From an uncultured Anaerolineaceae bacterium (lineage in GTDB: Bacteria; Chloroflexota; Dehalococcoidia; Tepidiformales; Tepidiformaceae), in NCBI GenBank assembly GCA_964475735.1, contig CAYYYI010000003.1, positions 10,923 through 54,098 of the forward strand: a stretch of DNA of 43,176 nt, in the 5' to 3' direction. Numbering within the stretch: the first letter of the stretch is position 1; each line of letters begins with the position of its first letter. Below, one piece after another: positions 5,329-43,176 of the stretch. The translations under genes and the position numbers were made by a program. The notes under the pieces were generated by a model. That model was not told the DNA's origin and made no database searches. It saw nothing but the letters and a program-made list of their open reading frames with translations.

Positions 5329-5341
5329 TACACTACGAGCC

Positions 5342-8049: not shown

Positions 8050-10293
8050 TTAGGGCGTGTTTTCCCAGTCTCGCCAGCGGCTCCTGCCTTCGGGAATGTA
8101 GTGTCCTGATGAAGTGGAGCCTTTGCCTGCGTCGCGGCGCCCCCCCCTATCCACGCGCGCAAGCAGGTAGTAGACGCCAACGCACGCCGCCCCCATGAGG
8201 CCAAAGAAGATGGCCAACCGCTTGAGACCGCGGGCGTCCGCTTCGTTCCAGCCGTCGTAGGCCAACTTCGAGAACTTCAGGGCGGTTGCAGCGTCGCCCG
8301 CCTCGTGGGCAGCCTCAGCTTTGGCAAGGTCCCCGGCGGGGTCTTCAAACAGCATCCCGATGCGCGCGAGCACGCCCGGCTTGAAGGCAGCCTGCTTCTC
8401 CTTCGCCAGGGAGATGAGCTGTTCTGCCGTTCCCTTGTCTGTGAGGGTGGTGATGGCGAGCGAGGCCAGCCGCTTCGCGCCTGTGAAGTCGCCCGCGGCG
8501 TAGGCCACACGGGCCTCTTCGAGCCGTGCGAGCGAGGGGCTATTGGGCGGCTCGTTCGTGAGCTCTTTCGCTGTCCCGCTAATGGCCACAATTGCCTGGC
8601 GCTGGTTTTCGATCATGCTGGCAAGTCCGGCCATGTTACTGGTTTGCCACACCTTGGCGACAGCCCCGGAGGGCGGCAGCCCGGCTTCAGCCGAGAGCGC
8701 GCTCACGGTGGCAAGGGCATCCAGCAGGGCGTGCACCTTTTCGACCTGCCCCGCGATGCCGCCGAATTCCCATGCGTCGAGGTTGGCGTGCAGGTCGGTG
8801 GGGAAGCCGCTCAGCCCGAATCCGGCCTGCCGGGCGGCCAGGGCGCTCACCAGGTTGTGCGCGGCGCGACGCTCCTTGACAGTGGCCTGGGCCGTCTCGG
8901 CATTGAACACCCACGTAAGGAACAGCTCATCGAGGTTTGAGCCGCTTGCATATTCGCCCGCGTCCATGAACCAGCGAGCATCGAGCGGCAGCCGGGACGG
9001 TTCATCGTCCATCCGCTGAAGCACGGCTTTCATGCCTTCGCGCCCCCCGATGACCTTCTCATATTCGAACCAGAAGGCGCCTGCCTTGCCGTACCAGTAC
9101 ATCGGATCGTAGACGTTGGAGCCGCTGTACCAGGTTGCGAGCGGATCGGTGTAGCCGGATGACTTCCAGGGGCGCTCGATGGGGACAAACCCCACCTGAA
9201 AGGCGACGACGCGCGTCGCATATTCGGCGAGCCCCTCCCAGAGCCATTTCACGGCCAGGTTGTCGCCTGCCCATTGATGGGCGAGCTCGTGCACGGTGAC
9301 CTCACGGTCAAACCCGGTATCCGTCGCAAGCAGGACTTGGCCCTCGGAGGGGAAGGCCACGCCAGCAGCGCCCACAAGCTCGATGTGGTGCGACTGCCGC
9401 ATGAGGATCTCATCTTTGGGGTAGTCGAAACCGAAGAGATCTCGCAGGAGCGGAAGCGCGGCCAGCGCAGTGGCAAACTGCTCCTCAGCCCACTTCTCAT
9501 CGCGCCGGAAGTACCGGAAAGTGAGCTTGACGGTGCGGTCCCCCATGGCGACATCGGCCACTTGCGAGCCACGCAGAGAGGAGTCGGAGATCGACTGCAC
9601 GTAGGCCGAATAGGGGCTCACGTTGAATCGCTGCCGGCAGCTGTTGTCGGCGTTCGCGCAGCGCTTGAGCACGGTTGGGTCGCCGGCGCTGAGCGCGATG
9701 AGCGTGGCTTCGCCGCAGATCCACCGTTCGTACCCGGAGCTCTTGACCTCGCCGGGTTGGTGCGAAGCGCGCAGGCAACCGGGATCGAAGTAGTTCTCCG
9801 CACTGAGCGGCACGTCGACCCACACGAAGGAGCCTTCGCCCTGGCCGAGGAACGGCAACTCGATGGAGCCAGGCTCCATGGCCATGACGCTGTTCTTGAG
9901 GGCGGGCATGTCGTAGGTCATGACGAAGTCGAACTTCGCGCCGGGCTTCATCGGCTTCGGCAGGGTCACCGTGACAACGGAGAGCGCGCCGAAGAACTCG
10001 GCCACATCGCTGGACTTCACTTCGACGGGCAGATCGCCTCGCATGACAACGAGGTTCTGTGCGCCCGGCATGGCCCACAGGTAGACGATCGGAAGGTCCT
10101 TCGCAGTCGCGTTCTGGATGGTCGCTTCAACGCGGACGGTGAGCGTGCCGGTGGGAGGGTCGAGGCGGTAGTAGGAATCAGAAGCGACGTTCTGGGTGCT
10201 GCCGTCGGCAGCAATCGCCGGGCCGGACAGTGAGACGGACGTGAGCGCGCCCGCCATGAGCACGCACAGGAGCAGCAGGCGCCAGACCCTCAT
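8050..10293 (-). CDS. Secreted/membrane-anchored MA-clan (gluzincin, M1 / peptidase_MA_2-like) zinc metallopeptidase
   Basis: It has a signal peptide (MRVWRLLLLCVLMAGALTSVSLSGPAIA) and the zinc site HELAHQW...WLWEGLAEY. The C-terminal part is helical and repeat-like, and ends in a single TM helix (LAIFFGLMGAACVGVYYLLA). Confidence 0.8.
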   Translation of the reverse strand: MRVWRLLLLCVLMAGALTSVSLSGPAIAADGSTQNVASDSYYRLDPPTGTLTVRVEATIQNATAKDLPIVYLWAMPGAQNLVVMRGDLPVEVKSSDVAEFFGALSVVTVTLPKPMKPGAKFDFVMTYDMPALKNSVMAMEPGSIELPFLGQGEGSFVWVDVPLSAENYFDPGCLRASHQPGEVKSSGYERWICGEATLIALSAGDPTVLKRCANADNSCRQRFNVSPYSAYVQSISDSSLRGSQVADVAMGDRTVKLTFRYFRRDEKWAEEQFATALAALPLLRDLFGFDYPKDEILMRQSHHIELVGAAGVAFPSEGQVLLATDTGFDREVTVHELAHQWAGDNLAVKWLWEGLAEYATRVVAFQVGFVPIERPWKSSGYTDPLATWYSGSNVYDPMYWYGKAGAFWFEYEKVIGGREGMKAVLQRMDDEPSRLPLDARWFMDAGEYASGSNLDELFLTWVFNAETAQATVKERRAAHNLVSALAARQAGFGLSGFPTDLHANLDAWEFGGIAGQVEKVHALLDALATVSALSAEAGLPPSGAVAKVWQTSNMAGLASMIENQRQAIVAISGTAKELTNEPPNSPSLARLEEARVAYAAGDFTGAKRLASLAITTLTDKGTAEQLISLAKEKQAAFKPGVLARIGMLFEDPAGDLAKAEAAHEAGDAATALKFSKLAYDGWNEADARGLKRLAIFFGLMGAACVGVYYLLARVDRGGRRDAGKGSTSSGHYIPEGRSRWRDWENTP

Positions 10294-20972: not shown

Positions 20973-21944
20973 GTGAAGAAGCTCGGGATCCTGACAAGCG
21001 GGGGAGACGCCCCCGGCATGAACGCCGCAATCCGTGCCGCCGTTCGCACGGCAAGCACCCGGGAGATCGCCATGGTGGGGTACATCGATGGCTTCGCCGG
21101 CTTCGTGGCCGGGGAGTTCCTGGAACTTGATGACCGGGCAGTCGGCAACATCATCCAGCGGGGCGGCACATTCATCGGCACTTCGCGCTGCCCCGAGTTC
21201 CTGGATGCGAGCGTACGTGCCGCGTCCGTCCGCCAGATGCGGGCGGCCGGGGTCGACGGCCTCATCATCGTCGGGGGCGACGGCAGCTTCCGCGGGGCGA
21301 GAGCACTCGAACTGGAACATGGTGTCCCGGTCGCCGGGGTACCGGGGACGATTGACAACGACGTATATGGCACCGAGGAGACGATCGGGTTTGACACGGC
21401 GGTCAACACGGCCGTCCTGGCCATCGACAACGTCCGCGACACCAGCGAATCGACGGGGACGATGTTCTTCGTCGAAGTGATGGGGCGAACGAGCGGCGCA
21501 ATTGCCCTGCACACTGCCCTGGCAGGCGGCGCCGCCGGGGTCCTTGTTCCCGAGGCGCACGAGGACATAGCACAACTACTCGAGCGGCTTCGTACCTCGA
21601 TCGAGCGCGGCAAGCGCAGCCACATTGTGGTTGTGGCCGAAGGCGATCAGGCAGGCGGCGCCTTCGCGGTGGCCGAAATGGTAGGCAAGCACATCGACCA
21701 CCCCCACCGGGTTATCGTGCTTGGGCACATCCAGCGGGGAGGACGCCCGACAGCGCGAGACCGCATCGTAGCTTCGCTCTCCGGGGCGCTGGCGGTGGAG
21801 GGGCTGGCCGCAGGCCGGTCCGGGTTCATGGTCGGAATGCAGGGCGGCCGTGCCGTCGAGGTGCCGCTCGAGGCGGTCGTGGAGCAGGCGCATCCGGAGC
21901 CTGAGTACGGCCTTCTACAGTTGGCGCAGACGCTTTCAGGGTGA
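20973..21944 (+). CDS. pfkA: ATP-dependent 6-phosphofructokinase
   Basis: Motifs seen are [38 protein letters not shown] and VEVMGR. The length is 323 aa and the start is GTG. Confidence 0.93.
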
Positions 21945-22017
21945 CTTGGGCGGGGCCTGCGCTGGCAGCCGGTGGCGGGCAGTTCTCAGAGTGCGCGTCC
22001 GCCATATACTCAGGGTT

Positions 22018-23520
22018 GTGAGCGAGTCCTTCATCCTTGCCATTGACCAGGGGACCACAAGCTCCCGCGCGCTTGTGGTGGACGCACGTGGCGCCGTCCG
22101 CGGAACGGGGCAGGTACCGTTCACACAGCACTTCCCGCAGCCAGGCCGGGTCGAACACGACCCGGAAGAGATCTGGGCATCGACGCAGGCGGCCATTGCC
22201 GCCGCGCTCGAGGATGCAGGCATCACAACGGGCGACCTCGTAGCAGTGGGCATCACGAACCAGCGGGAAACGGTGGTGGCCTGGGACCGCGAGACGGGCG
22301 AGCCGGTTGGCCGCGCCATTGTCTGGCAGGACCGGCGTACCGCGAAAATCTGCGACGACCTCCGCGCCGCAGGCCATGAAGACACCATCACCCGGGCCAC
22401 AGGCCTCACCATCGACCCCTATTTTTCGGGGACGAAGCTCACCTGGCTCCTGCGAGAGTGGCCCGAACTGCGGGAGCGAGCGGAGCGAGGCGAGATTGTC
22501 GCGGGGACGATCGACTCGTGGCTAACCTGGAAGCTGACGGCCGGGCAGCGCCATGTGACCGACTACACGAACGCCAGCCGCACCCTCCTTTTCAACATCA
22601 CGAAGGGACGCTGGGACGAGCGGCTTTGCGAACTGCTCGAAGTGCCGCGAGCGATGCTGCCAAAAGCCCAACCTTCACGCTCGCCCTTCGGCGACACCGA
22701 TGAGGATGTCTTCGGTGCACGGGTACCGATTTGTGGCATCGCTGGCGATCAGCAGTCGGCGCTCTTCGGGCAGGCGTGCCTGTCGCCGGGGCAGGCCAAG
22801 AACACCTACGGCACGGGGTGCTTCCTGCTCGCCAACGCCGGGCCGAGGCCGGCTCTCCCGGCGAACCGCCTGCTGTTATCCATCGGCGCGAACGCCGGGC
22901 TCCAGGGGCCTGAGTACGTCATCGAAGGCTCGGTCTTCGTAGCAGGAGCGCTCATCCAGTGGCTGCGAGACGAGCTTGGCATCATCGAGCGCGCCGCAGA
23001 CGTGGAAGCCCTGGCGGAATCGGTGCGCGATAGCGGCGGGGTCACCATCGTCCCTGCGTTCACGGGGCTGGGTGCTCCCCACTGGGATCCGCGTGCCCGC
23101 GGCGCGATCCTCGGCCTCACACGAGGGGCGGGCAGGGCTCACATCGCCAGGGCTGCGCTCGAAGCGATCGCGCTTTCCAGCGCCGAGCTCGTGGAGGCGA
23201 TGAACGCGAGCCTGCCCACTGCCATTTCGGAACTCCGCGTTGATGGCGGCGCGGCGGCGAACGATCTGCTCATGCAGATGCAGGCCGACTTCGCAGGTGT
23301 CCCAGTGGTGCGGCCCCGGCAGACCGAAACAACCGCGATGGGGGCGGCCTTCCTGGCAGGCATCCAGGCCGGCATCTGGGCAGACGCCACGGAGATCTCA
23401 ACCCTCTGGCAGGCCGAGCGCGTCTTCGAGCCCCGGATGAACGGCGCCCAGCGCGCCGAGCGGATGGGGAATTGGCGGCGCGCGGTCGAGCGCTCCCTCG
23501 ATTGGGCTACGGAGGAGTGA
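22018..23520 (+). CDS. glpK: Glycerol kinase
   Basis: Motifs seen are [48 protein letters not shown], the NTYGTGCF segment and [14 protein letters not shown] placed the start at the in-frame GTG 22018; the track ORF runs upstream into the pfkA 3' end. Confidence 0.95.
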
Positions 23521-25157
23521 GCACGGACTCGAGCGTTCCCCTCCCGGCAGACCCCGACACCAGGCGGCGGCTTGCCACCATCTCCTCGGGGCCGCCCCTT
23601 GACGCCGTCATCATCGGCGGCGGCATCAACGGTTGCGGCATCGCAGAGGACCTGGCGGCCCGGGGCCTCCGCGTGGCGCTCTTCGAAGCCGGCGACTTCG
23701 GCTTCGGCACGACATGGCGATCCACGAAGCTGATCCATGGCGGCCTGCGCTACCTGGAGCACGGCGACGTCCGCCTTGTGTTCGAATCGCTGCGCGAGCG
23801 GGCCTGGCTGCTTCGCGCCCGGCGCCATCTCGTGCGGCCGCAACGGTTCATCTTCCCGCGGCTGCCGTGGACGCGGCGCCCGGTATGGCAGCTAAGGGCG
23901 GGGCTCGCTCTCTACGACTTCCTTGCTCGTGACCGTGCTGTTCCCGGGCATCGCAGCCTCTCGCGGGCCACGACGCTGGAGGCCGCGCCCTGGCTCCCAC
24001 CCGATACCGCGAGCGGCTTCTCGTTCTACGATGCGCGTTGCATCGCCCCCGAACGTCTCACCCTCGAACTGGCGCTCGGCGCCCGCGACCACGGCGCCAT
24101 CATCGCGAACCACACCCCCGTGCGCCGCATCCTCACGCACGATTGGGAGGTTGCAGCGGTCGAAGCCGGGCACGGCGGCGAAACCTTCGAGATCCCCACG
24201 CGCGCCGTGATCAATGCTGCGGGACCGTGGGTCGATGCCGTGAACGCGCTTGCGCAGGCGCCCGCGCCCGCCCTGCTCGATATGACCCGGGGCACGCACA
24301 TCGTCGTGGAGCCCGGGCAGCCAGTCGGGAAGGACGCGGTGTTTTCCACGGCGAGGAGCGACGGCCGGGTCCTGTTCGCAGTGCCGCAGGATGGCCTGCT
24401 GCTGATCGGGACAACGGACCTCCGCTACGAAGGTGACCCGGGCGCCATCCGGCCCACGGCCGAAGAGGTTGACTACCTGCTGGAGGAGGCGCAGGCGCTG
24501 CTCCCTGGCCTCGGCATCGGCAAGAGCCACGTGCGCTACGCCTACGCCGGGCTGCGCCCGCTTCAGAAGCTGAAGGAAGGGCCCGAAGTCGCCATGACCC
24601 GGCGCCACGTGGTCACGGACCACGGCGAGCAGGGGCTTGCTCACGGCCTCTATAGCGTCGCCGGGGGCAAGTTGAGCACGTTCCGGCCAATCGCCCGCGA
24701 ACTGGCCGCGAGGCTGCATTCCGGCCCGCGCGTTGAGCCCGAACCAGACACGGGCCGGGATCGCGCCTGGTTCGAGGAGCTAAGAGCGGCGCCACTCCCG
24801 CTCACATCCAGGGAGCACCTGCGGCGCTACGGCACGGCCATCACGCAGGTGCTCGCGGGCGGGCAAGAGATCCTTTGCAGCCACAGTGGAGCGGTTACGG
24901 GCGAAATCGCCCATGCCGCGCGCGCCGAGGCGGCGGTCACCCTCGCGGACGTGCTCATGCTGAGGACGGGCGTGGCGTGGGCCTCGTGCCGGGGGCTGTG
25001 CTGCCATCGCCAGGCGGCCCGCATCGTCGCCACCGTGCTCGGGTGGGATGCGGACCGTGAAGAGCAGGAAGTGCACGCCTTCGAGGCGGCCCTCGACTAT
25101 CATCTTCCTGACGTGCAGTCCCTCATTTCCACAGGCGCCGGCAGTGCACCAGCGTGA
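23517..25157 (+). CDS. glpD: FAD-dependent glycerol-3-phosphate dehydrogenase
   Basis: It has the dinucleotide fold [22 protein letters not shown], then [18 protein letters not shown] and a C-terminal GlpD-type helical domain. The GTG start overlaps the glpK stop (GTGA). The exact start is uncertain. Confidence 0.88.
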
Positions 25158-34435: not shown

Positions 34436-34621
34436 TTAGAGGGCGGCGTTGATCGCATCGAGCTTGGCGTCGATGCTCGTGCCCAGCAGGGTGAGAGCGG
34501 CGATGCAGACGACGGCGATGAGCGCGAGGATCAGGCCGTACTCGGCGAGACCCTGGCCCTCTTCGTCGCGGTGGGTGAGCTGGATGTACTTCTTCGCAGC
34601 CCAGTTCTGAAGCTTCGACAT
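34436..34621 (-). CDS. flp: Flp family type IVb pilin (major Tad pilin)
   Basis: The 61-aa prepilin has the Flp motif G/QGLAEYGLILALIAVV (Glu +5, Tyr +6) after a 22-aa charged leader, then a hydrophobic helix. Confidence 0.88.
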   Translation of the reverse strand: MSKLQNWAAKKYIQLTHRDEEGQGLAEYGLILALIAVVCIAALTLLGTSIDAKLDAINAAL

Positions 34622-35048
34622 GGTTGGTTCCTACCTCTTCCTTTTTTCGGGTTGTTCCCGTGGTGTTGCTACCGCCGGCGTTGCGTTCGGGCCTCCCCGG
34701 CCAGCGTTCCTGCCATGGCCCCTTCCGCTTGCAGGAGCCCGGCCTGGCTATGCTGGCCATTACCCCGCGTCCCTTCCCCTCGAACCCCTTGGGCAGGGGT
34801 GGCCTTCGAAGGTTCGGACCGCCCGGGTCCGGCCGCTCCACCGACTGGAGCTACTAGCAGAGTCGTCCGCGCCAAAGCACCCTAAAGGCCTATCACCCGC
34901 TGTTCACGGAATTTCTCCCGCGGAAGGCGGACTGAGCCAGTGGGCGTTCCTGCCGAATCTAACTGTGAGTGGACATGGCATTCACCTGGAACCGCCCGCG
35001 AGGAGCAAAGTGCAGTTAGCACAACCGGACACAGCAACCAGCTTCGGG

Positions 35049-35663
35049 ATGAAGAGACGCCTGGGCAGCTACGGCTCATTCGCACAGGACGCCGTGCTGA
35101 TCCTGGTCGCGTCCTTCTTCTTCTATATCCACATCGAACGCATGCTGGCCCATGGCGTCTTCACCAGCGCGCCGTTTGCCATCGAACAGGGACTTCTGGT
35201 TGGCCTCTTCCTGACGCGGCGGCGTGCCAGGGCGACTTCGAAGCGCCTGATCGACTGGGTGGCTGCTGTGGGAGGATGGCTGCCCTTCGCCTTCATGCCG
35301 GCCGATAACATTGCCCGATGGCTGGCGACTTCGGGAACGGCGGTGCAGATGGTTGGCTTGTCCCTGACAATCGTGTGCTTCATGGCGCTTGGCAGGAGCT
35401 TCGGAATTGTCGCGGCGAACCGCGGCCTCAAGGTGAATGGACCGTACCGGATCGTCCGGCATCCCATCTACTTCGCCCACGTAGTGACAATGACGGGCTT
35501 TGTCATCGCCAACCTTCACGCCTACAACGTCGCACTCTTCGCGATCATCATGGCGTTCCAGGTGTACCGCATGAATGCCGAGGAGCGCGTCCTTACAGAG
35601 ACAGGCGACTACGCGCAGTACGCCAGCCGGGTGCGCTGGCGGCTCATCCCCGGCGTGTACTAG
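35049..35663 (+). CDS. Isoprenylcysteine carboxyl methyltransferase (ICMT)/phospholipid methyltransferase family membrane protein
   Basis: Several TMs are followed by the C-terminal signature GPYRIVRHPIYFAHVV...YRMNAEERVL. I placed the start at ATG 35049. The 143 codons upstream in the track ORF look non-coding (Pro/Gly/Ala/Leu junk, antisense to the flp leader). Confidence 0.78.
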   Translation: MKRRLGSYGSFAQDAVLILVASFFFYIHIERMLAHGVFTSAPFAIEQGLLVGLFLTRRRARATSKRLIDWVAAVGGWLPFAFMPADNIARWLATSGTAVQMVGLSLTIVCFMALGRSFGIVAANRGLKVNGPYRIVRHPIYFAHVVTMTGFVIANLHAYNVALFAIIMAFQVYRMNAEERVLTETGDYAQYASRVRWRLIPGVY

Positions 35664-36424
35664 ACGAATCTCTCGGGCCAGAGCAGGACAACCGCTCCCC
35701 CCAGGGCCAGGTAGGGGCCATAGCTGAAGACGCGCTTCGCGCCGCCCATGACAAGCATGACGATGCTGGGAACGCCCGCGGCAATCACCCCCAGGAAGAG
35801 CGCAGGCATTATCGCCGGCCACCCGGCGAGCAACCCGGTGAGCAGGATAAGCTTCACGTCGCCAAGGCCGAACGGCGTCGCCTTCACTCCCAGCAGAGCG
35901 CCGGCGAGCAGGCCGGCCACGAACAGCACACCCCCGGCCGCGAGCGCAGTTGCAGCGCCCAGCCAGATGCCGGCCACCGAGCGGTCGGGCCAGGCCCAGC
36001 AGAGCCCCGCTGCAGCCAGCAGAGAAGGGTAGAGCAGCCTGTTCGGGATGATGCGCCGTTCGAAGTCAGCGCTCGAAAGAACCGCCAGGACCAGCACGAA
36101 ACCGGCGGTGAGAACGGCGGGACCGGCGTCGTAGTGGTCCGGGCGCAGGGCGAGCGCTGCCCCGGCCGCGCAGGCCCCCGCCAGCAGGGCGCGGTAGCGG
36201 AGGAGCTTGGCGCCGCGCAGGGGATCCTCGCGGTACTCCTGCTGACGGTAGAGCAGGTGCTGCCACCCGGCGGCGAACCAGCCGAAAGCGAGCCCGGCCG
36301 CGCCTGCCGCCACGGTCAGAGCGATTTCCACGCTCGCAACTATCGGTTGAAGGCCCGCTGTCCACAACCTTGCCCGGCGCGAGTCCTGTGCGCCGTTCCC
36401 GGGAGCCGGGGTACACTCCGCCAA
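35660..36424 (-). CDS. tadV: A24 family prepilin peptidase (CpaA/TadV)
   Basis: It is polytopic, with two catalytic Asp contexts (SSADFERRIIPN and PFGLGDVKLIL). The start is uncertain: TTG 36424 or GTG 36331. Confidence 0.83.
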   Translation of the reverse strand: MAECTPAPGNGAQDSRRARLWTAGLQPIVASVEIALTVAAGAAGLAFGWFAAGWQHLLYRQQEYREDPLRGAKLLRYRALLAGACAAGAALALRPDHYDAGPAVLTAGFVLVLAVLSSADFERRIIPNRLLYPSLLAAAGLCWAWPDRSVAGIWLGAATALAAGGVLFVAGLLAGALLGVKATPFGLGDVKLILLTGLLAGWPAIMPALFLGVIAAGVPSIVMLVMGGAKRVFSYGPYLALGGAVVLLWPERFV

Positions 36425-36447
36425 ACCCCGCCCGGAATCGAGCCGCC

Positions 36448-37746
36448 ATGACCACTGAGATCGACTGGAACGCCGCGACCAACGAAGCCGTCCGCATCCT
36501 CCGTGAGTACCTGCGCATCGACACCTCTAACCCGCCGGGAAACGAGGAGCGCGCGGTCCGCTTCCTGGGCGAGATATTGGCTGCTGAGGGCATTCCCTTT
36601 GAGACGGCCGAGTCAGCGCCCGGGCGCTCGAACCTCATCGCCCGCGTGGGGCCAGGCAAGGGCGGCATCTGCCTGCTCAACCACACCGACGTCGTGCCCG
36701 TTGAGCGCCAGTTCTGGGACGTGGACCCGTTCGGTGGCGAGCTGCGCGACGGGATGATCTGGGGGCGCGGCGCCCTCGACATGAAGGCGATGGGGGTGAT
36801 GGAGCTGATGACCGTCATCCTGCTGAAGCGGCAGGGAGTCCCGCTCCGGCGCGCGGTCACGTTCCTGGCCGTTGCCGATGAGGAGGCCGGGAGCGAGTTC
36901 GGCGCCGCCTGGATCGAGCGGCATCGCCCCACCTGGCTCGGCGCTGACCTGGTCATCAACGAGGGGGCGTATGGCCTGAGCGAAATCGCGGGCAGCGGGA
37001 CGCCCGTGTTCACCTTCGCGCCGAGCGAGAAGGTCCCCTTCTGGCTGCGGCTTGTCACGCGAGGCAGACCGGGGCACGGCTCCGTGCCCCACGGCGACAA
37101 CTGCGCCGAACGGCTCGTTCAGGCCCTCGACCGGGTCGGCCGCTGGCAGCAGGGGGTGCGCGTGACCCCGGTGATGCAGGCCCACTTCGACGCCCTCGCA
37201 GAGGCCGGGCTGGGCCCGGGCTCAGGCGAGGCCGCGATCCGCGCCACGGCGGGCGAGAACCCCGCCGCCAGGGCACGGCTGGCGAACACCATCTCCCTCA
37301 CGACCATCGCCACGGGGGTCAAGGTGAACGTCATCCCCGCGGAGGCGAGCGCCACGCTCGACTGCCGCCTTCTCCCCGATGTTGACCCGGACGAGTTCCT
37401 CGCCGCCCTGCGGGCTGTGATCGGCGACGAACGGGTGGAGATCGAGGTCATCAACCGGTACCAGGGCGCGGCCTCGCCGCTTGATTCCGAATTCACCCGC
37501 GTGGTGAGCGAGGTGGTCTCGGAGATGGTTGAAGGCGCAAGGCTCATCCCGGAGCTAACCCCCGGCTTCACCGACTCGCGCATCTATCGCATGCGCGGGG
37601 TGCCCGCCTACGGGTTCGTCCCCTGCGTGCTCCCACCGGGCGACCTCGCCACCATCCACGGCCACAACGAACGCATCAGCGTGGAGAACATCCGCCTGGG
37701 GTTGCAGGTGATGTACGAGGTGGTGCGAAGGCTCTGCGCCTCCTGA
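36448..37746 (+). CDS. M20 family metallopeptidase (ArgE/DapE/CPG2-like)
   Basis: Motifs seen are LREYLRIDTSNPPGNE, LLNHTDVVP, GRGALDMKA, ADEEAGS and HGHNERI. I placed the start at ATG 36448. Confidence 0.88.
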   Translation: MTTEIDWNAATNEAVRILREYLRIDTSNPPGNEERAVRFLGEILAAEGIPFETAESAPGRSNLIARVGPGKGGICLLNHTDVVPVERQFWDVDPFGGELRDGMIWGRGALDMKAMGVMELMTVILLKRQGVPLRRAVTFLAVADEEAGSEFGAAWIERHRPTWLGADLVINEGAYGLSEIAGSGTPVFTFAPSEKVPFWLRLVTRGRPGHGSVPHGDNCAERLVQALDRVGRWQQGVRVTPVMQAHFDALAEAGLGPGSGEAAIRATAGENPAARARLANTISLTTIATGVKVNVIPAEASATLDCRLLPDVDPDEFLAALRAVIGDERVEIEVINRYQGAASPLDSEFTRVVSEVVSEMVEGARLIPELTPGFTDSRIYRMRGVPAYGFVPCVLPPGDLATIHGHNERISVENIRLGLQVMYEVVRRLCAS

Positions 37747-37758
37747 TGCGGCCTGGTC

Positions 37759-40215
37759 TCAGGCGTCGCGGACGGCCGCTTCGAGGCGCTCGGTAGCCTC
37801 GGCGTAGCTGGTGCCCGGCTCGAACGTGATGGGCTCGCCAATGTTGACGCGCACGCGTGCACGCGGATGGGGCAGCCACTTGCCCTCGTAGAACCCCGGG
37901 CGGAGCACGTCGATGCGCATCGGGAGGACGGGCACGCCCGTCTCAACGGCCAGCAGCCCGGTGCCGCTCTTGAACGGCTGCATCGGACCGAGAACCGTCA
38001 GCATCCCTTCCGGGAAGATGAGCACGTTCCAGCCCTCTTCGAGCATCTTCGCCACATGCTCAAGGCTCTCGCGAACGCCGCTCCCTTCTTTGGCGAAGGG
38101 GAAGGCATTGCCCAGCAGGCTTGCGCTGAAGCCGCGCAGCCGGTTCCCAAAGATGTCGCTCGCAGCCGCCGCCACCGCCACCCGCTGCCGGAACGAAGCC
38201 GGCATGCTGCGCAGCAAGAGCGAGTGGTCGACGTGCATGTTGTGGTTGCTGACGATGAGGCAGGGCTCGCGCAGGTCGCGGAAGCGTCCGCGGCCGCGCA
38301 CCTCAACGCTATAGCCCAGCCGCAGGAGCGGGAACACAATGCCCGACATGAGCACGCGCCGCAGCCAGCGCACCGGCCGCCTGCGGGGCCAGCCAGGGAA
38401 GCGGTGAGCCTTTGGACGGCGTTCTCCCTGCTCTGTCATTGTCCGCAGTTCCGAAACCGTGGTCTGCGGGCCAATTTCCGTGTCATCAACGAATACACCA
38501 ATCTCTTCCTCGATCGCTGAAAGCAACTCGACTCTCCCCAGGGAGTCAAGGCCCAGGTCGGGTCCCAGCGCATGGTCCTCGCGGATGGTCCCTTCAAACT
38601 TGCTGCACGAGGCTATCACGCGGCGGAGCTCATCGCTGTCGGCGACGCCCGCGGCGGACACGGGCGCAGATACTTCAAGCCCCTTCAGGAAATCGGTAAC
38701 GAGGTTCTTCCGCACCTTCAGCGTGTGGGTCCGCGGGAAGTCCTCTTCGGGCCACACGGTGAAGCCCATTATCTGCTGGCGGTCGTCGAGCTTCGTGTTT
38801 GCGGCACGCACGGCCTGCTCGGCGGCGCCCGGCTGGTCCTCGATCAGTACAGCGTGGATTCGTACGTCTCCGTCGCGCTCGAGGCCCACGACAACCGCGT
38901 CGATCACCCCGGGCTCGCGCGACAACACCCCCTCGATGTCCTCGGGATAGACGTTCTGACCATCGGCGAGGACGATGAGGTCCTTCTTCCGCCCCTTCAG
39001 GAAGAGGTAGCCGTCCTCGATGTAGCCGAGGTCGCCGGTGCGGTACCAGTCGCCGTCGAAGGCCGCGGCGGTCGCCGCTTCGTTCTTCCAGTAGCCTCTG
39101 AACACATTGGGGCCGCGCGTCTGCACCTCGCCGTCTTCGGTCACGCGCACCTGCTGCCCCGGGAGCGGGCGCCCGACGCTCTTCAATCGCCGATCGTTTC
39201 GAGGATTGATGCTGACGACGGGAGCGGCCTCGGTGGCCCCGTACCCTTCGACGATGGGGACGCCCATGGCCTCCCACTTGAGCTGCACTTCAGAATCGAG
39301 GGCGGCGCCGCCGCTGGCGATAAAGTCGATCTTCGCTCCGAAGCGGCTCAGCACTGACCGGAACAGCAGCCTCCGGGCGCGCGACGGAAGGGGGGCGGCG
39401 ATGCGCCGCAGCCGCTTCAACATCGCCATCCGGCCCTGGTTCGTGGCCTCGCGCTCGATGCCGTTCATGAACAGCGAAAGCACCTGCGGCACGGCGATGA
39501 TGATCGTCGGTTTCCAATCCTGCATGACGCGGGCGAGCGCCGCGGGCTGGCGGCTTGCCGGGTAGTAGATGGCCGCGCCGGCCGCAATGGCAGCGTGGCA
39601 TCCGCCAGTCTGCTCAAACATGTGGCTGAGAGGCAGCAGCGAGAGCAGCCGGCTCTCGCGCGAGAAGTGAATGACTGTCAGGGCCGCCTCGACGTTCGCG
39701 GCGATGTTGCGGTGTGAGAGCATGACACCTTTGGGATCGCCGGTGGTGCCGGACGTGAAGATGATCTCCGCGATGTCATCGCCGCTGATGGGCGCCGGGG
39801 TCACCTTGCCGTCGGCCGGGAGGTGGAGCGACTCCATTTCGAGCACGGGGACTTCGAGCTCGCGCAGCACGGCTGCCTGGTCGCGCCCGGCGAAGGCGAG
39901 GGCCGGCTCGGTTTGGGACACTACACGTTCGACGAATTCTCGCGAACTGCGCACGTCGAGAGGCACCAGGATTCCGCCCGCCAGGAAGGTCCCGTACATG
40001 GCGGCGACCCAGTCGGGCTGGTTCGGCGCCCAGATCAGCACCCGATCGCCCACCTTCATGTGGCGCTGCTCCATTAGCCGTGCGTAGGCATGGGCCCGTT
40101 GTTCGAGCTCGCCGTAGGTGTAGCGGATGGAGCGCACCCCAAGGCGCATGAGCAGAGCCGTCCGGTCACGGTTCTCGTTGGCAGCCTGTTCCAGGAGGTC
40201 GGCGAGCGTGTTCAT
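37759..40215 (-). CDS. Tri-domain fusion: AMP-dependent acyl synthetase/ligase + phosphopantetheine carrier domain + PlsC/LPLAT-type acyltransferase
   Basis: The ANL motifs are IIFTSGTTGDPKG, GYGATE and YRTGDLG...LKGRKKDLI. The carrier motif is DLGLDSLGRVELL. The acyltransferase motifs are NHNMHVD (H-x4-D) and IFPEG. It is a single uninterrupted 818-aa frame. Confidence 0.9.
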   Translation of the reverse strand: MNTLADLLEQAANENRDRTALLMRLGVRSIRYTYGELEQRAHAYARLMEQRHMKVGDRVLIWAPNQPDWVAAMYGTFLAGGILVPLDVRSSREFVERVVSQTEPALAFAGRDQAAVLRELEVPVLEMESLHLPADGKVTPAPISGDDIAEIIFTSGTTGDPKGVMLSHRNIAANVEAALTVIHFSRESRLLSLLPLSHMFEQTGGCHAAIAAGAAIYYPASRQPAALARVMQDWKPTIIIAVPQVLSLFMNGIEREATNQGRMAMLKRLRRIAAPLPSRARRLLFRSVLSRFGAKIDFIASGGAALDSEVQLKWEAMGVPIVEGYGATEAAPVVSINPRNDRRLKSVGRPLPGQQVRVTEDGEVQTRGPNVFRGYWKNEAATAAAFDGDWYRTGDLGYIEDGYLFLKGRKKDLIVLADGQNVYPEDIEGVLSREPGVIDAVVVGLERDGDVRIHAVLIEDQPGAAEQAVRAANTKLDDRQQIMGFTVWPEEDFPRTHTLKVRKNLVTDFLKGLEVSAPVSAAGVADSDELRRVIASCSKFEGTIREDHALGPDLGLDSLGRVELLSAIEEEIGVFVDDTEIGPQTTVSELRTMTEQGERRPKAHRFPGWPRRRPVRWLRRVLMSGIVFPLLRLGYSVEVRGRGRFRDLREPCLIVSNHNMHVDHSLLLRSMPASFRQRVAVAAAASDIFGNRLRGFSASLLGNAFPFAKEGSGVRESLEHVAKMLEEGWNVLIFPEGMLTVLGPMQPFKSGTGLLAVETGVPVLPMRIDVLRPGFYEGKWLPHPRARVRVNIGEPITFEPGTSYAEATERLEAAVRDA

Positions 40216-40219
40216 CGGA

Positions 40220-40987
40220 TCATCCGGTCAGCGTGGCTACGAACTGGCGGACCTGCGCGTCGGCGCCCGTGAGAATCGGGCGGAAGTGGCTGAAACAGAG
40301 GGTGTCGAAGTCAAGAGCTGCCAGCTTCCTGACTGATTCGGCGGCCTCGGCCATGTCCTGGGTGAACAGCCGGTTCGGCAGCATGAGCCGCCCAAACTTG
40401 AACTGCATGGCATCGCCGATGAGGAGCAGGCCCCGGTTCGGGAAATGGATGGAGATGCTGCCCGCGGTATGGCCGGGCGCGTGGACAATGCGCATCCCGC
40501 CGAAGGCTGGGAGCTCGTCGCCATCCTTCAGGTGAACGTCGACGCGAGCCGAGCCCGGGTCCTGCCGCAGCAGGTACGGTTCGCAGATCTTCGCCAGGAG
40601 AGGATGCATGAACGGGTTGGGGAGCGGCTCGTCGCTCTCCACGTGGGGCGCCTCGGCCAGATGAACACCCGTCCGGGCATCGACGTACTTCTGGATCTCG
40701 GGCAGCCCGCCCACGTGGTCTATGTGGTAGTGGGTGATGACGATGTTCTTGATGTCCTCGGGCGAACGGCCGATCTCCTGCAGGGCCTTCAGTATGCGAA
40801 TACCTGAACCCGGGTTGCCGGTATCGATGAGCGTTATGTCGTCTTCGACAATGAGGTAGGCGCGGGAGCCACGGGTGCGTACCTGGTAGAGGCCAGGCAG
40901 CACTTCGCGCGCGAGGCGAAAGGGGGCCGGCTTCATCTCGTCCCAGCGTTCCTGCCATGGCCGTACGGCCGTCTGACGCGTAGGCAT
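40220..40987 (-). CDS. MBL-fold metallo-hydrolase
   Basis: Motifs seen are ITHYHIDHVGG (HxHxDH), HAPGHTAGS and a C-terminal CFSHF. Its stop lies 4 nt before the start of the fusion gene. ATG 40936 is an alternative start. Confidence 0.85.
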   Translation of the reverse strand: MPTRQTAVRPWQERWDEMKPAPFRLAREVLPGLYQVRTRGSRAYLIVEDDITLIDTGNPGSGIRILKALQEIGRSPEDIKNIVITHYHIDHVGGLPEIQKYVDARTGVHLAEAPHVESDEPLPNPFMHPLLAKICEPYLLRQDPGSARVDVHLKDGDELPAFGGMRIVHAPGHTAGSISIHFPNRGLLLIGDAMQFKFGRLMLPNRLFTQDMAEAAESVRKLAALDFDTLCFSHFRPILTGADAQVRQFVATLTG

Positions 40988-41348
40988 GGCCTAAGCATAT
41001 CAGGAACGCGAGCGCGCGAAGCCCGGGCGGGGTCAACTTCGAAGCGAAAAGTCTCCGCAGGCGCGCAACAGGCGGGCAAGTCTCGCGTAAGGATGCACCC
41101 TGGCCGGAAGGCGCGCATCGCCGTACCGTGCGCAGCTTCGAGTGCATGCGATCGTGTCCGGCAATTCTGGAGGCTCAGCGACGCCCGGGCTTCTCGCATC
41201 GAGCGCCAGAAGCTATCCCTGGAGGCATCGATAACTTGCGGGCAAGGCTCCAATAACCAGCAGGAACCGGGCGCAATCGGGGACTGCATCTGAGTTGCGT
41301 GGGCAGCGGGACGTCGAGTATCGTGCTGTGACGAGCAAGGAGAATTCG

Positions 41349-42257
41349 ATGCAGGTTGAGCAAGTACGGTTCCGTAGTGGTGACGGTGAATGCGGGGCGG
41401 ACCTCTACTTGCCGGGCGACAGGGCATCTGGCGAACGCCGCCCTGCGATTGTTCTCGGAAGCGGCTTTGCAACGCGAAAAGAGAGCATCAGACCACACGC
41501 CGAATATTTCGCCAAAGCTGGATTTATCGCACTGGCGATTGACTACCGCACTTTCGGAGAAAGCAGCGGTGATGTCCGTCACCAGGTGTTTCCGCTTTGG
41601 CAAGTAGAAGATTACCGGTCAGGGATCTCCTATCTTGAGACTCGCAAAGAGGTTGATCCCGATCGGATCGGCATCTGGGGCATGAGTTTCGCGGGCGGTG
41701 TCGTTCTGTATACGGCGGCCTTCGAGCCGCGCATTAAGGCGGTGGTTTCGCAAACACCGGTCGTGAACGGATGGCGATGGGCGCAGGGGTTAAGGACACG
41801 AGGTGAATGGGAGAAGCTGATCAACGTAACGCTCGTTGAGGATCGCCGCCGCCGCGCGTCGGGCGAGTTGAGCCGTCTCATCCCTCACTCAGGCGCCATG
41901 TACGCGGCAATGCCATTCAGCGAACCTGACATCGCCGAGATAGATGTGATGCGCGAGCCCGACGGCTCCCTCCCCATGCATGTGGCGCTCAGGGTCACTC
42001 TTGAGTCACTCGAAAAGGTCATCGAGTTCCTGCCCGACACCGTAATCGACCGCATCGCGCCACGGCCGCTGTGCATCATCACCGTTTCGGGGTATGACGC
42101 CGTCCACCCCCTGGATCACATCCAGGAAGCCTACCAGCGGGCAGGTGAACCGAAGAAGCTGGTCCTGCTCCCCTACCGCCAGTTCGACGTGTACGTCGAG
42201 CCGGGGCGGTCGGTAGCCCTTGACCACGCACGGGACTGGTTTCAGTCACACATGTAG
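41349..42257 (+). CDS. Alpha/beta hydrolase (COG1073/dienelactone-hydrolase-like)
   Basis: The nucleophile elbow is GIWGMSFAGG, followed by ...VHPLDH near the C-terminus. AAGGAG lies 6 nt upstream of ATG 41349. Confidence 0.78.
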   Translation: MQVEQVRFRSGDGECGADLYLPGDRASGERRPAIVLGSGFATRKESIRPHAEYFAKAGFIALAIDYRTFGESSGDVRHQVFPLWQVEDYRSGISYLETRKEVDPDRIGIWGMSFAGGVVLYTAAFEPRIKAVVSQTPVVNGWRWAQGLRTRGEWEKLINVTLVEDRRRRASGELSRLIPHSGAMYAAMPFSEPDIAEIDVMREPDGSLPMHVALRVTLESLEKVIEFLPDTVIDRIAPRPLCIITVSGYDAVHPLDHIQEAYQRAGEPKKLVLLPYRQFDVYVEPGRSVALDHARDWFQSHM

Positions 42258-42337
42258 GCGCTCCTGGCGCCCGGGGCCGGGTTCGTGGCGGAAGCGCCGG
42301 TTTGCGTTTCGCGCCGGGAGCGGTACCTTAAGCCGCC

Positions 42338-43138
42338 ATGACAACAGCACTCTCGGGTGAATGGTCCCTGGTCCTCGGTTCATCAAGCGGCTTTGGAGCG
42401 GCAGTTGCCGTCGAGCTTGCCCGGCACGGATCGAACGTTTTCGGCGTGCACCTGGACCGGCGGCAGACGATGCCAGCGGTCGAGGCCATTGTCAGCGAGA
42501 TCGATGCGTCGGGTGTCCGCGCCCGGTTCTTCAACATCAATGTGGCCGACGAAGAGAAGCGCCAGGCCGCTGTCGCTGAGATGGCCACATTGACGAGCCG
42601 CCCCCTGCGTGTGGTGCTTCACTCCATCGCCTTCGGCACCACGGGCCTCGGCTTGCTGCCCGGCGCCTCAGGCGCCGCCCTCAACCAGAAGCAGATCGAA
42701 ATGACCCTCGACACGATGGCGAACAGCCTCGTCTACTGGGTCCAGGACCTGTTCAATGCTGGGCTCGTCGGCATGGGGACGCGCGTCTACGGGATGACGA
42801 GCGCGGGCAACCAGCGGGTCATCCCGGGATACGGTGCGGTATCAGCCGCGAAGTCGGTTCTTGAGTCGCACCTCCGCCAGCTTGCAGTGGAGCTGGCGCC
42901 GCATGGCGCAACCGCGAACGCCATCCAGGCGGGCGTCACCGATACGCCCGCACTCAGCAAGATCCCCGGCGCGGAGCGGCTTCGCGAATTCGCCCGCGCC
43001 GCCAACCCGTCCGGCCGGATGACGACGCCCGGGGACGTGGCCCGCGCCATCGTGGCGCTTTCAAGCGATGGAACGGAATGGATGACGGGAAATGTCATCC
43101 GCGTCGACGGCGGCGAGGATTTGGTCATCACGCCCTGA
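42338..43138 (+). CDS. SDR family oxidoreductase, enoyl-[ACP] reductase (FabL/FabI)-like
   Basis: It has the Rossmann motif GSSSGFGAA and a Tyr-x6-Lys catalytic spacing (YGAVSAAK) as in FabI/FabL, rather than the classical Y-x3-K. TDTPAL follows. Confidence 0.75.
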   Translation: MTTALSGEWSLVLGSSSGFGAAVAVELARHGSNVFGVHLDRRQTMPAVEAIVSEIDASGVRARFFNINVADEEKRQAAVAEMATLTSRPLRVVLHSIAFGTTGLGLLPGASGAALNQKQIEMTLDTMANSLVYWVQDLFNAGLVGMGTRVYGMTSAGNQRVIPGYGAVSAAKSVLESHLRQLAVELAPHGATANAIQAGVTDTPALSKIPGAERLREFARAANPSGRMTTPGDVARAIVALSSDGTEWMTGNVIRVDGGEDLVITP

Positions 43139-43176
43139 AGTCCATCGTGAAGAGCGCTTCCAAGAAGAAAGGCCCC

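Follow-up and report, generated by a model that had tools for sequence, protein, structure and literature searches.

What might a protein do that joins, in one reading frame, a domain for activating carboxylic acids, an acyl carrier protein (ACP)-like domain and a PlsC-type acyltransferase, and that is encoded 4 nucleotides (nt) behind the gene for a metallo-beta-lactamase (MBL)-fold hydrolase? The question is raised by a locus in a 43,176-nt stretch of DNA (the window) from an uncultured member of the Tepidiformaceae (Chloroflexota), the minus strand of which carries two tightly coupled genes, a 255-amino-acid (aa) open reading frame (ORF) at 40220-40987 and then an 818-aa ORF at 37759-40215. 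The explanation that we regard as fairly probable is that the larger protein is a self-contained enzyme for acyl activation and transfer that operates independently of coenzyme A (CoA), and that the MBL-fold protein works with it. Within a widespread ligase-ACP-acyltransferase family that is uncharacterised and related to Escherichia coli Aas and Myxococcus xanthus ElbD, the protein belongs to an MBL-coupled subfamily of Chloroflexota; the architecture has already been noticed in the literature and hence is not new in kind. The features of the two-gene unit, all on the minus strand, are as follows (LPLAT, lysophospholipid acyltransferase).

37759-40215, minus strand: gene for the tri-domain enzyme, 818 aa (adenylation domain, ACP-like carrier, PlsC/LPLAT acyltransferase); from ORF, Pfam, homologs and AlphaFold2
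38680-40215, minus strand: ANL adenylation (acyl-AMP-forming) domain, residues 1-512; from PF00501, NCBIfam and Aas alignment
38425-38640, minus strand: ACP-like carrier, residues 526-597, with the codon of the phosphopantetheine-attachment residue Ser558 at 38542-38544; from PF00550 and ACP profile matches
38308-38424, minus strand: linker and long Arg/Trp-rich amphipathic helix before the acyltransferase core, residues 598-636 (helix 613-634); from model secondary structure
37762-38307, minus strand: PlsC/LPLAT acyltransferase domain, residues 637-818; from PF01553, Thermotoga maritima PlsC and Aas alignment
40220-40987, minus strand: gene for the MBL-fold protein, a predicted binuclear metallo-hydrolase of 255 aa, first of the two-gene unit; from PF00753, invariant ligands and synteny
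40216-40219, minus strand: 4-nt spacer between the MBL stop and the fusion start codon (putative translational coupling); from the sequence read

A ligase, a carrier and an acyltransferase in one frame

A sequence-only reading of this stretch had described the larger gene as a single frame of 818 codons with ligase, carrier and acyltransferase, and the ORF together with a Pfam scan bears this out: the frame is uninterrupted, and the protein matches the three Pfam domains AMP-binding, PP-binding and Acyltransferase (PF01553). All the motifs quoted in that reading, and the Ser558 codon, were found where it had placed them, and its domain borders agree with Pfam and with the secondary structure of the AlphaFold2 model. 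The model of the whole protein has a mean predicted local distance difference test score (pLDDT) of 86.4 and a predicted template modelling score (pTM) of 0.83, with low confidence only in the P-loop and in the linker between adenylation and carrier domains (the A-T linker, residues 516-525). The earlier reading had also assumed that no frameshift or assembly join lay between the domains; a frameshift or a chimeric join is indeed excluded, since hundreds of independent assemblies, made from many samples, show this architecture as well.

The ligase has all the core motifs of ANL enzymes (A3, A5, A7, A8 and the A10 lysine), they are invariant, and its fold matches that of ANL enzymes. The PF00501 match covers residues 8-376 (E 6.7e-77), with a weak match of the C-terminal subdomain at 412-473. 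The motif IIFTSGTTGDPKG lies at residues 151-163, with the P-loop TSGTTGDPKG encoded at 39727-39756, and is joined by GYGATE (324-329), YRTGDLG (391-397), KGRKKD (407-412) and the A10 lysine K500 (codon 38716-38718). Conservation, here and below, was read from alignments of 16 and 61 homologs of 48-100% identity; in the larger alignment T154-G159, P161-G163, Y325, G326, T328, E329, T393-D395, R409, D412 and K500 are invariant. Because the best NCBIfam matches of the ligase are long-chain fatty-acid--CoA ligases (PRK06187, FadD and FadD11), a long-chain fatty acid is proposed as its substrate; the region 249-295, gapped against Aas, is spanned by one continuous FadD11 match.

The carrier is recognised by PF00550 above the gathering score (residues 544-590, 24.7 bits versus a cut-off of 20.8) and by profile matches to solved ACPs of the fatty acid synthase (FAS) type, namely AcpP, AcpM and mitochondrial ACP, with E about 1e-7. 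Its motif DLGLDSLGRVELL (residues 553-565) holds Ser558, and in the model its helices span 529-537, 558-572 and 587-596, the second of them beginning at the serine. The earlier idea had depended on this serine being conserved in homologs, and D557-S558-L559 proved invariant in the 61 sequences.

Could the carrier be a vestige, with the ligase making acyl-CoA or loading free ACP and the fused PlsC domain using the diffusible thioester? A modest PP-binding score, the fact that several homologs fall under the precomputed Pfam threshold, and the use of acyl-CoA or acyl-ACP in trans by E. coli PlsC (PMC4882568) would all be in keeping with this. We nevertheless judge it highly unlikely, given that D557-S558-L559 and the surrounding helix are invariant down to 48% identity, that distant relatives have AcpS genes overlapping the fusion gene, and that the predicted arrangement of the A-T part matches carrier-docked states of nonribosomal peptide synthetases (NRPS). 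This part of the model superposes best on carrier-docked, thioester-forming states (holo-EntF 5t3d, 647 columns, root-mean-square deviation 4.7 A; PltF-PigG 7thq, 4.3 A), and ATP-bound MatB-type structures fit it less well (about 11 A). A working holo-carrier is likewise supported by the AcpS genes that overlap or flank the fusion gene in those relatives.

The acyltransferase and the question of its acceptor

The linker and helix that precede the acyltransferase core contain three invariant residues (W609, R619 and Y635). Helix 613-634 may act as an interfacial membrane anchor, a role suggested by the comparable N-terminal helices of T. maritima PlsC. The domain that follows matches PF01553 at residues 637-768 (E 8e-16), and its profile matches T. 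maritima PlsC (5KYM) end to end (E 3e-10). Both the H-x4-D dyad and the P-E-G of PlsC/LPLAT enzymes are present and invariant: block I reads NHNMHVD (H658 to D663, codons 38227-38244, HNMHVD being residues 658-663) and block III reads FPEGMLT (codons 37996-38016, FPEG being residues 734-737), with N657-H658, D663 and P735-E736-G737 unchanged in all 61 homologs.

To which acceptor would such a domain pass the acyl group? In mutagenesis of glycerol-3-phosphate and lysophosphatidic acid (LPA) acyltransferases, E-G-T-R-S in block III and an Arg in block II have been associated with binding of the glycerol-phosphate acceptor. The LPA acyltransferase signature is lacking in the window protein, which has FPEGMLT and NAFPFAK in place of the FPEGTRS and the Arg-containing block II of E. 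coli PlsC. In a motif census of fetched proteins, block III of the window protein reads PEGx(L/I)T, like the PEGRIT of Aas, as it does in 110 of 118 close homologs; members linked to CdsA (L083, L087 and L090 in our numbering of loci) have the classical PEGTRS, as in E. coli PlsC, and PEGK(L/M)S is frequent in other phyla. Since block III thus resembles that of Aas and not PEGTRS, a lyso-lipid with a substituted head group would be favoured over plain LPA. Block III also correlates with the presence of the MBL gene, found at 0 of 5 PEGTR[ST] loci versus 51 of 60 x[LI]T loci (Fisher p = 2e-4), a correlation confounded by phylogeny because the motif groups are also separate clades. It was first read as a sign that the MBL acts on the acceptor side, a reading that was downgraded to a clade signature in view of Arg-less variants in MBL-less phyla. 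Block III is accordingly best seen as such a signature, one that weakly favours a non-LPA, Aas-like lyso-lipid acceptor.

An MBL-fold hydrolase as conserved partner

The first gene of the unit encodes a protein that matches PF00753 (E 5e-33) and whose model (pLDDT 80.8) matches the MBL fold at probability 1.0. It has the HxHxDH motif and the distal His, Asp and His ligands, and all of these (H86-x-H88-x-D90-H91, H173, D192 and H234) are invariant in 36 orthologs. A conserved glycine precedes D192, which is of the bridging type; the bridging Asp in glyoxalase II and lactonases likewise follows a glycine. The protein is therefore predicted, from its ligands and fold, to be an intact binuclear metallo-hydrolase.

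That its gene ends 4 nt upstream of the fusion gene, as the earlier reading had it, was borne out by the sequence (MBL stop TGA at 40222-40220, spacer 'tccg', fusion ATG at 40215), and stop and start codons overlap or nearly abut in relatives too. The expected synteny in relatives also held. Among the 74 loci with an assessable upstream region, tblastn found an MBL homolog (33-89% identical) on the same strand and at most 300 nt upstream of the fusion in 53; at 6 further loci the homolog was divergent, in 5 cases at no more than 300 nt. Linkage is still seen where the carrier-acyltransferase half is only about 40% identical, and it extends over Tepidiformaceae, other Dehalococcoidia, SAR202 and Limnocylindria. 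When the ORFs of 84 loci were clustered all against all, the MBL emerged as the sole neighbour conserved family-wide; the other large clusters were set aside as opposite-strand shadow ORFs without Pfam matches or as lineage-restricted genes, and an upstream acyl-CoA dehydrogenase is conserved only within Tepidiformaceae.

What, then, might this hydrolase cleave? It scores below the cut-off of every curated NCBIfam family (bla_subclass_B3, 67.8 versus 240 bits; GSH_gloB, 53.5 versus 200.8), its best solved relatives in a sequence search of the PDB are generic (E about 1e-10), and Foldseek places its model near TTHA1429, B3 lactamases and LACTB2, with the thioesterase PqsE at a similar TM-score. 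As the matches to B3 lactamases, LACTB2 and TTHA1429 are equally good, no substrate class can be assigned. The fold and the HxHxDH...H...D...H metal site are common to the window protein and to MBL-fold thioesterases such as glyoxalase II, PqsE and the fungal MBL-type ACP thioesterases; models and structures of glyoxalase II are among its best matches, yet its GloB score lies far under the cut-off. In fungi, MBL-type thioesterases release ACP-bound polyketides (PMC4591646). An acceptor-side role was considered as well because, at a locus that encodes a carrier-acyltransferase protein lacking the ligase (L086), a neighbouring patatin gene offers an analogy. It seems to us about equally likely that the MBL is an editing or releasing thioesterase, with the acyl-S-carrier as its target, and that it is a hydrolase supplying or processing the acceptor lipid.

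One locus of the Dehalococcoidia (L004:5220-5846) may have been mis-annotated in this region: gene calls give two short minus-strand genes upstream of the fusion, and a plus-strand homolog of the MBL, 43% identical and perhaps mis-called or degraded, is found at that place by tblastn.

Relation to Aas, ElbD and other known systems

The closest functional parallel would be E. coli Aas (b2836), which likewise has an ANL fatty-acid-activating domain and a PlsC-type acyltransferase on one polypeptide. The window ligase is 30% identical to the ligase half of Aas (E 4e-32) and the acyltransferase 29% identical to the other half over 140 residues (E 3e-10); the two proteins also have in common the Arg-less block III PEGx(I/L)T and, as predicted for the window protein, a route from free fatty acid through acyl-ACP to lyso-lipid without CoA. 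Alignment to the fetched Aas sequence upholds the earlier claim that the order is reversed and the carrier built in: in Aas the acyltransferase occupies residues 9-138 and the ligase about 352-630, with ACP acting in trans. The partners differ too, that of Aas being the lysophospholipid transporter LplT and that of the window protein a cytosolic MBL hydrolase, and the NCBIfam models for Aas are far from reached (PRK08633, 183 versus 1221 bits; PRK06814, 171.5 versus 1349). By its sequence, the window protein may be described as a functionally circularly permuted Aas with a built-in ACP, or architecturally as ElbD minus its reductase.

Should the protein, then, be placed with ElbD, as an enzyme of alkyl-ether or plasmalogen lipid biosynthesis? 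A reductase-fused ElbD would be expected to be about 1,400-1,500 aa long, and no protein of that length occurs among the 150 best representatives of the carrier-acyltransferase (T-PlsC) module. The window protein opens with AMP-binding at residue 8 and has no reductase or NAD-binding domain, and no fatty aldehyde or alcohol can form without a reductase. Its neighbours (MBL, M20 peptidase, alpha/beta hydrolase and a FabL-like short-chain dehydrogenase/reductase (SDR)) include no counterpart of the elb operon partners, the HAD-like ElbB and the NAD-dependent epimerase-like ElbE. By published descriptions, M. xanthus ElbD has the order fatty-acyl reductase (FAR), ligase, ACP, acyltransferase (PMC9131029; preprint 10.64898/2026.06.23.733905), so that its C-terminal three domains have the order of the window protein; of the comparison with ElbD drawn in the sequence-only reading, the lack of a reductase stood (Pfam), whereas the order given there, ligase-ACP-reductase-acyltransferase, did not, the reductase being N-terminal. 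The shared order speaks for an ether-lipid role, as do BLAST-based metagenomic surveys that count 'ElbD homologues' in Chloroflexota and other phyla as ether-lipid potential (PMC11868695; 10.64898/2026.06.23.733905). Weighed against the missing reductase and the dissimilar neighbours, these points leave such a role very improbable in our view, and the Chloroflexota 'ElbD homologues' of the kind described here should not be read as ether-lipid potential, because they lack the reductase. FAR-less 'ElbD-like homologues' had been noted in 2014, as a review reports (PMC9131029), and the same review describes those of other phyla as proteins that 'almost all lack a FAR1 domain' and are unstudied; for ElbD itself it records ligase and ACP activity in vitro.

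Two further comparisons are instructive. The acyltransferase has in common with PlsC (T. maritima 5KYM, E. coli b3018) the HX4D and PEG blocks, an end-to-end alignment and a predicted amphipathic helix before the domain; it differs in a block III without Thr-Arg-Ser, in a Lys for Arg in block II and in a fused carrier that is predicted to supply the acyl donor in cis. In myxobacterial polyunsaturated fatty acid synthases, an AGPAT domain is believed to accept acyl groups directly from ACP (PMC4882568). This domain, at the C-terminus of Pfa3, resembles the present case in that an acyltransferase is fused to a carrier-based assembly line, with acyl-ACP off-loading into phospholipid proposed, and differs from it in that the Pfa3 acyl chain is made de novo on tandem ACPs, whereas the window enzyme would capture a free acid by its ligase.

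Distant relatives among phospholipid genes

Four full-length distant representatives (L087-L090), whose carrier-acyltransferase part shows 31-36% identity to that of the window protein, have a different setting. None of the four has an MBL neighbour, and all have an AcpS-type phosphopantetheinyl transferase gene beside the fusion gene, which it overlaps at the start or stop in L087-L089 and from which it lies about 1.8 kb off in L090. CdsA and a CDP-alcohol phosphatidyltransferase are encoded alongside the fusion in L087 and L090, as is a diacylglycerol (DAG) kinase in L087. Of the Chloroflexota lacking the MBL, L083 encodes a CDP-alcohol phosphatidyltransferase and CdsA behind the fusion, and AcpS lies 1.3 kb from the fusion in L076. 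The homologs of L087 are named from Patescibacteria of the candidate phyla radiation (CPR; Candidatus Harrisonbacteria), TM6, Gammaproteobacteria, Desulfobacterales and metagenome-assembled genomes (MAGs) of Verrucomicrobiota. The regions concerned are listed here.

L087:5001-9442
L088:3960-6778
L089:4666-7526
L090:2881-7466
L083:2959-5315
L076:8150-8488

The CdsA and CDP-alcohol phosphatidyltransferase neighbours support a role of the family in glycerophospholipid assembly. They also bring in the possibility that the window protein forms phosphatidic acid de novo by the chemistry of the favoured explanation, its PlsC domain acylating canonical LPA (or glycerol-3-phosphate) with a scavenged fatty acid and so feeding CdsA, with the MBL as an accessory. 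The direct adjacency to these genes in L083, L087 and L090, the DAG kinase near L087, the end-to-end alignment with the T. maritima LPA acyltransferase and the presence of glpK and glpD in the window would agree with this. The CdsA-linked relatives, however, have the PEGTRS from which the Arg-less block III of the window protein and most close homologs departs, and neither in the window nor in the MBL-linked loci does CdsA or any other phospholipid gene adjoin the fusion, so that we consider a role of this kind unlikely, though not negligibly so.

Spread of the family

Homologs of about 820 aa with the same architecture are abundant; the closest, by source names, come from Tepidiformaceae, Dehalococcoidia and other Chloroflexota, and 'AMP-binding protein' and 'long-chain acyl-CoA synthetase' are the only functional labels that they bear. 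Scanning genomes with the carrier-acyltransferase half brought up at least 390 loci. The best 80 of these are almost all from Chloroflexota (Tepidiformaceae, other Dehalococcoidia, SAR202 and Limnocylindria), the others being two Acidobacteriota and one actinomycete MAG, and the ligase is fused upstream in every locus with DNA available, with the sole exception of L026. When 1.84 billion representatives were searched exhaustively with the same half, 269 clusters matched at E <= 1e-30 and 1914 at E <= 1e-10, the full-length matches being mostly of 820-850 aa. The family is conserved across whole classes of Chloroflexota. Targeted literature searches found no paper characterising an enzyme with adenylation, ACP and LPLAT domains; a survey of fatty acyl-AMP ligases (FAAL) mentions FAAL-like domains fused to lysophospholipid acyltransferases only as unexplored (PMC8460268).

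Proteins with carrier and acyltransferase and without a ligase also occur. One (L086:5001-7401) has 313 aa and is followed by a gene for a patatin-like phospholipase; another (L026:4592-6822) has 289 aa and comes directly after a 3-hydroxyacyl-CoA dehydrogenase gene. Matches of about 300 aa are frequent among the T-PlsC representatives, and some may be fragments.

How might the two proteins work together?

From the domains, their conserved residues and the linkage of the two genes, we infer the following course of events. The N-terminal ANL domain would adenylate a free carboxylic acid, with a long-chain fatty acid as the likeliest substrate, and would then thioesterify the acyl group onto the phosphopantetheine arm at Ser558 of its own carrier. 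The PlsC-type domain (H658/D663), which the amphipathic helix 613-634 would keep at the membrane surface, would take the acyl group off the carrier and attach it to a hydroxyl on a membrane lipid, with a lyso-lipid as the favoured candidate acceptor. The co-translated MBL may work with the fusion in one of two ways, as a thioesterase that cleaves the acyl-S-carrier or as a hydrolase by which the acceptor lipid is made or processed. The interpretation first offered for this locus, a compact module that captures a free fatty acid and installs it directly on a lyso-lipid or other acceptor, is as a whole partly supported.

Several points weigh against this explanation. Function is predicted throughout the family, and even for ElbD acyltransferase activity went undetected (PMC9131029). 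The fatty-acid assignment of the ligase would follow solely from family resemblance, and malonyl-, oxalyl- and feruloyl-CoA synthetases are among the nearest solved ligases. The Arg-less PEGK[LM]S is also common in MBL-less phyla, which makes block III a weak guide to the acceptor. The MBL is absent from 15 of the 74 loci and so is not obligatory; sequence and fold place it only generically, among glyoxalase II, B3 lactamases, LACTB2 and PqsE, and the searches made with it would fit a lactonase, a phosphodiesterase or a beta-lactamase-like enzyme as well as a thioesterase.

Is it conceivable, instead, that the acceptor is no lipid at all, and that the protein is an NRPS-like tailoring enzyme acylating a secondary metabolite, a sugar or a cell-wall polymer, with the MBL as its releasing or editing hydrolase? 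Natural-product pathways typically feature A-T didomains with a dedicated hydrolase, the non-fatty-acid enzymes among the nearest solved ligases would suit such a role, and the PlsC superfamily includes non-phospholipid acyltransferases. The surroundings point elsewhere. The genes on either side of the pair face the other way, an M20 peptidase gene converging on the 3' end of the fusion and an alpha/beta-hydrolase gene diverging from the MBL; as neither is co-oriented, the unit consists of two genes. The remaining genes of the window have housekeeping functions (RNase J, FtsK, acetyl-CoA carboxylase carboxyltransferase, glpK/glpD, Tad pilus genes), and the window is a housekeeping region with no biosynthetic gene cluster. 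The MBL, moreover, is the one conserved neighbour, the family is maintained across whole Chloroflexota classes, and the carrier resembles ACPs of FAS and not peptidyl carrier proteins, with relatives that sit among phospholipid genes. A tailoring function thus appears improbable, and CoA-independent acyl transfer to a lipid, with the MBL as partner, is the explanation that we retain.

Other features of the locus and the window

The promoter of the two-gene unit is presumed, from the gene layout, to lie in the region that separates it from the divergent alpha/beta-hydrolase gene.

40988-41294, no strand: intergenic region separating the divergent MBL and alpha/beta-hydrolase genes; presumed promoter of the two-gene unit; from gene layout

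A consensus scan of 37600-41400 found no sigma-70-like consensus or promoter-like site, and terminator-like sites at chance level only.

The M20 metallopeptidase gene (36370-37746, plus strand), convergent with the fusion gene across a 12-nt gap, has its best matches in PRK07906 and N-acyl-L-amino-acid amidohydrolase-like models and is syntenic in the closest relatives (L005, L006, L007, L009, L010 and L019). An aminoacylase could free a fatty acid from N-acyl amino acids, which would be a putative link between this gene and the fusion. On the other side, diverging from the MBL, 41295-43138 (plus strand) encodes the alpha/beta hydrolase, whose best NCBIfam match is the UilS-type acyl-homoserine lactonase (104 bits, under the cut-off), and then a FabL-like enoyl-ACP reductase/SDR. 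An acyl-CoA dehydrogenase (82-97% identical) holds the divergent position in 21 related loci (L001:3784-4944 and 20 other Tepidiformaceae); its place in the window would be past the end at 43176.

Elsewhere in the window, a 747-aa ORF at 8050-10293 (minus strand) with a third-position GC of 0.82 has no Pfam match at E <= 1e-5. A 347-aa ORF at 34620-35663 (plus strand), between the Tad pilus genes and a prepilin peptidase gene, has an ICMT/PEMT-like membrane methyltransferase domain at its C-terminus (residues about 232-327) and a long N-terminal part without matches, and it may really begin further downstream. One ORF at 5243-7150 (plus strand) combines the two carboxyltransferase halves of acetyl-CoA carboxylase (Carboxyl_trans and ACCA); its predicted start overlaps the end of ftsK by 86 nt, so that the real start is probably later. 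The glpK-glpD pair (glycerol kinase and glycerol-3-phosphate dehydrogenase) occupies 21850-25157 (plus strand).

What the locus may mean

The established routes by which exogenous fatty acids enter bacterial membranes are FadD with acyl-CoA, the soluble acyl-ACP synthetases together with Aas, and the fatty-acid kinase system. If the explanation favoured here is true, one polypeptide that activates, carries and installs an acyl chain would constitute a fourth, self-contained route. A bolder version, which we put forward as no better than tentative, would see the MBL and the tri-domain enzyme as a Chloroflexota-specific, CoA-independent cycle of deacylation and re-acylation for lipid remodelling or repair, the MBL being a new MBL-fold lipid esterase or acyl-carrier thioesterase; separately, the MBL-less, AcpS/CdsA-coupled family of CPR, TM6 and other bacteria would be a missing ACP-dependent route to phospholipids from scavenged fatty acids in bacteria without fatty-acid synthesis. 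A study of CPR lipids reported that it found no ACP-producing or ACP-requiring enzymes in CPR genomes (PMC7242380), and the AcpS/CdsA-linked relatives may bear on how these bacteria assemble phospholipids or make fatty-acid-based lipids. The T-PlsC module family is large, as the 269 representative clusters attest, and no experimentally characterised member was found in the literature searched. It has been overlooked, or misread as an ether-lipid marker; it may matter for fatty-acid scavenging in bacteria without fatty-acid synthesis, and its conserved MBL partner offers a concrete target for enzymology.

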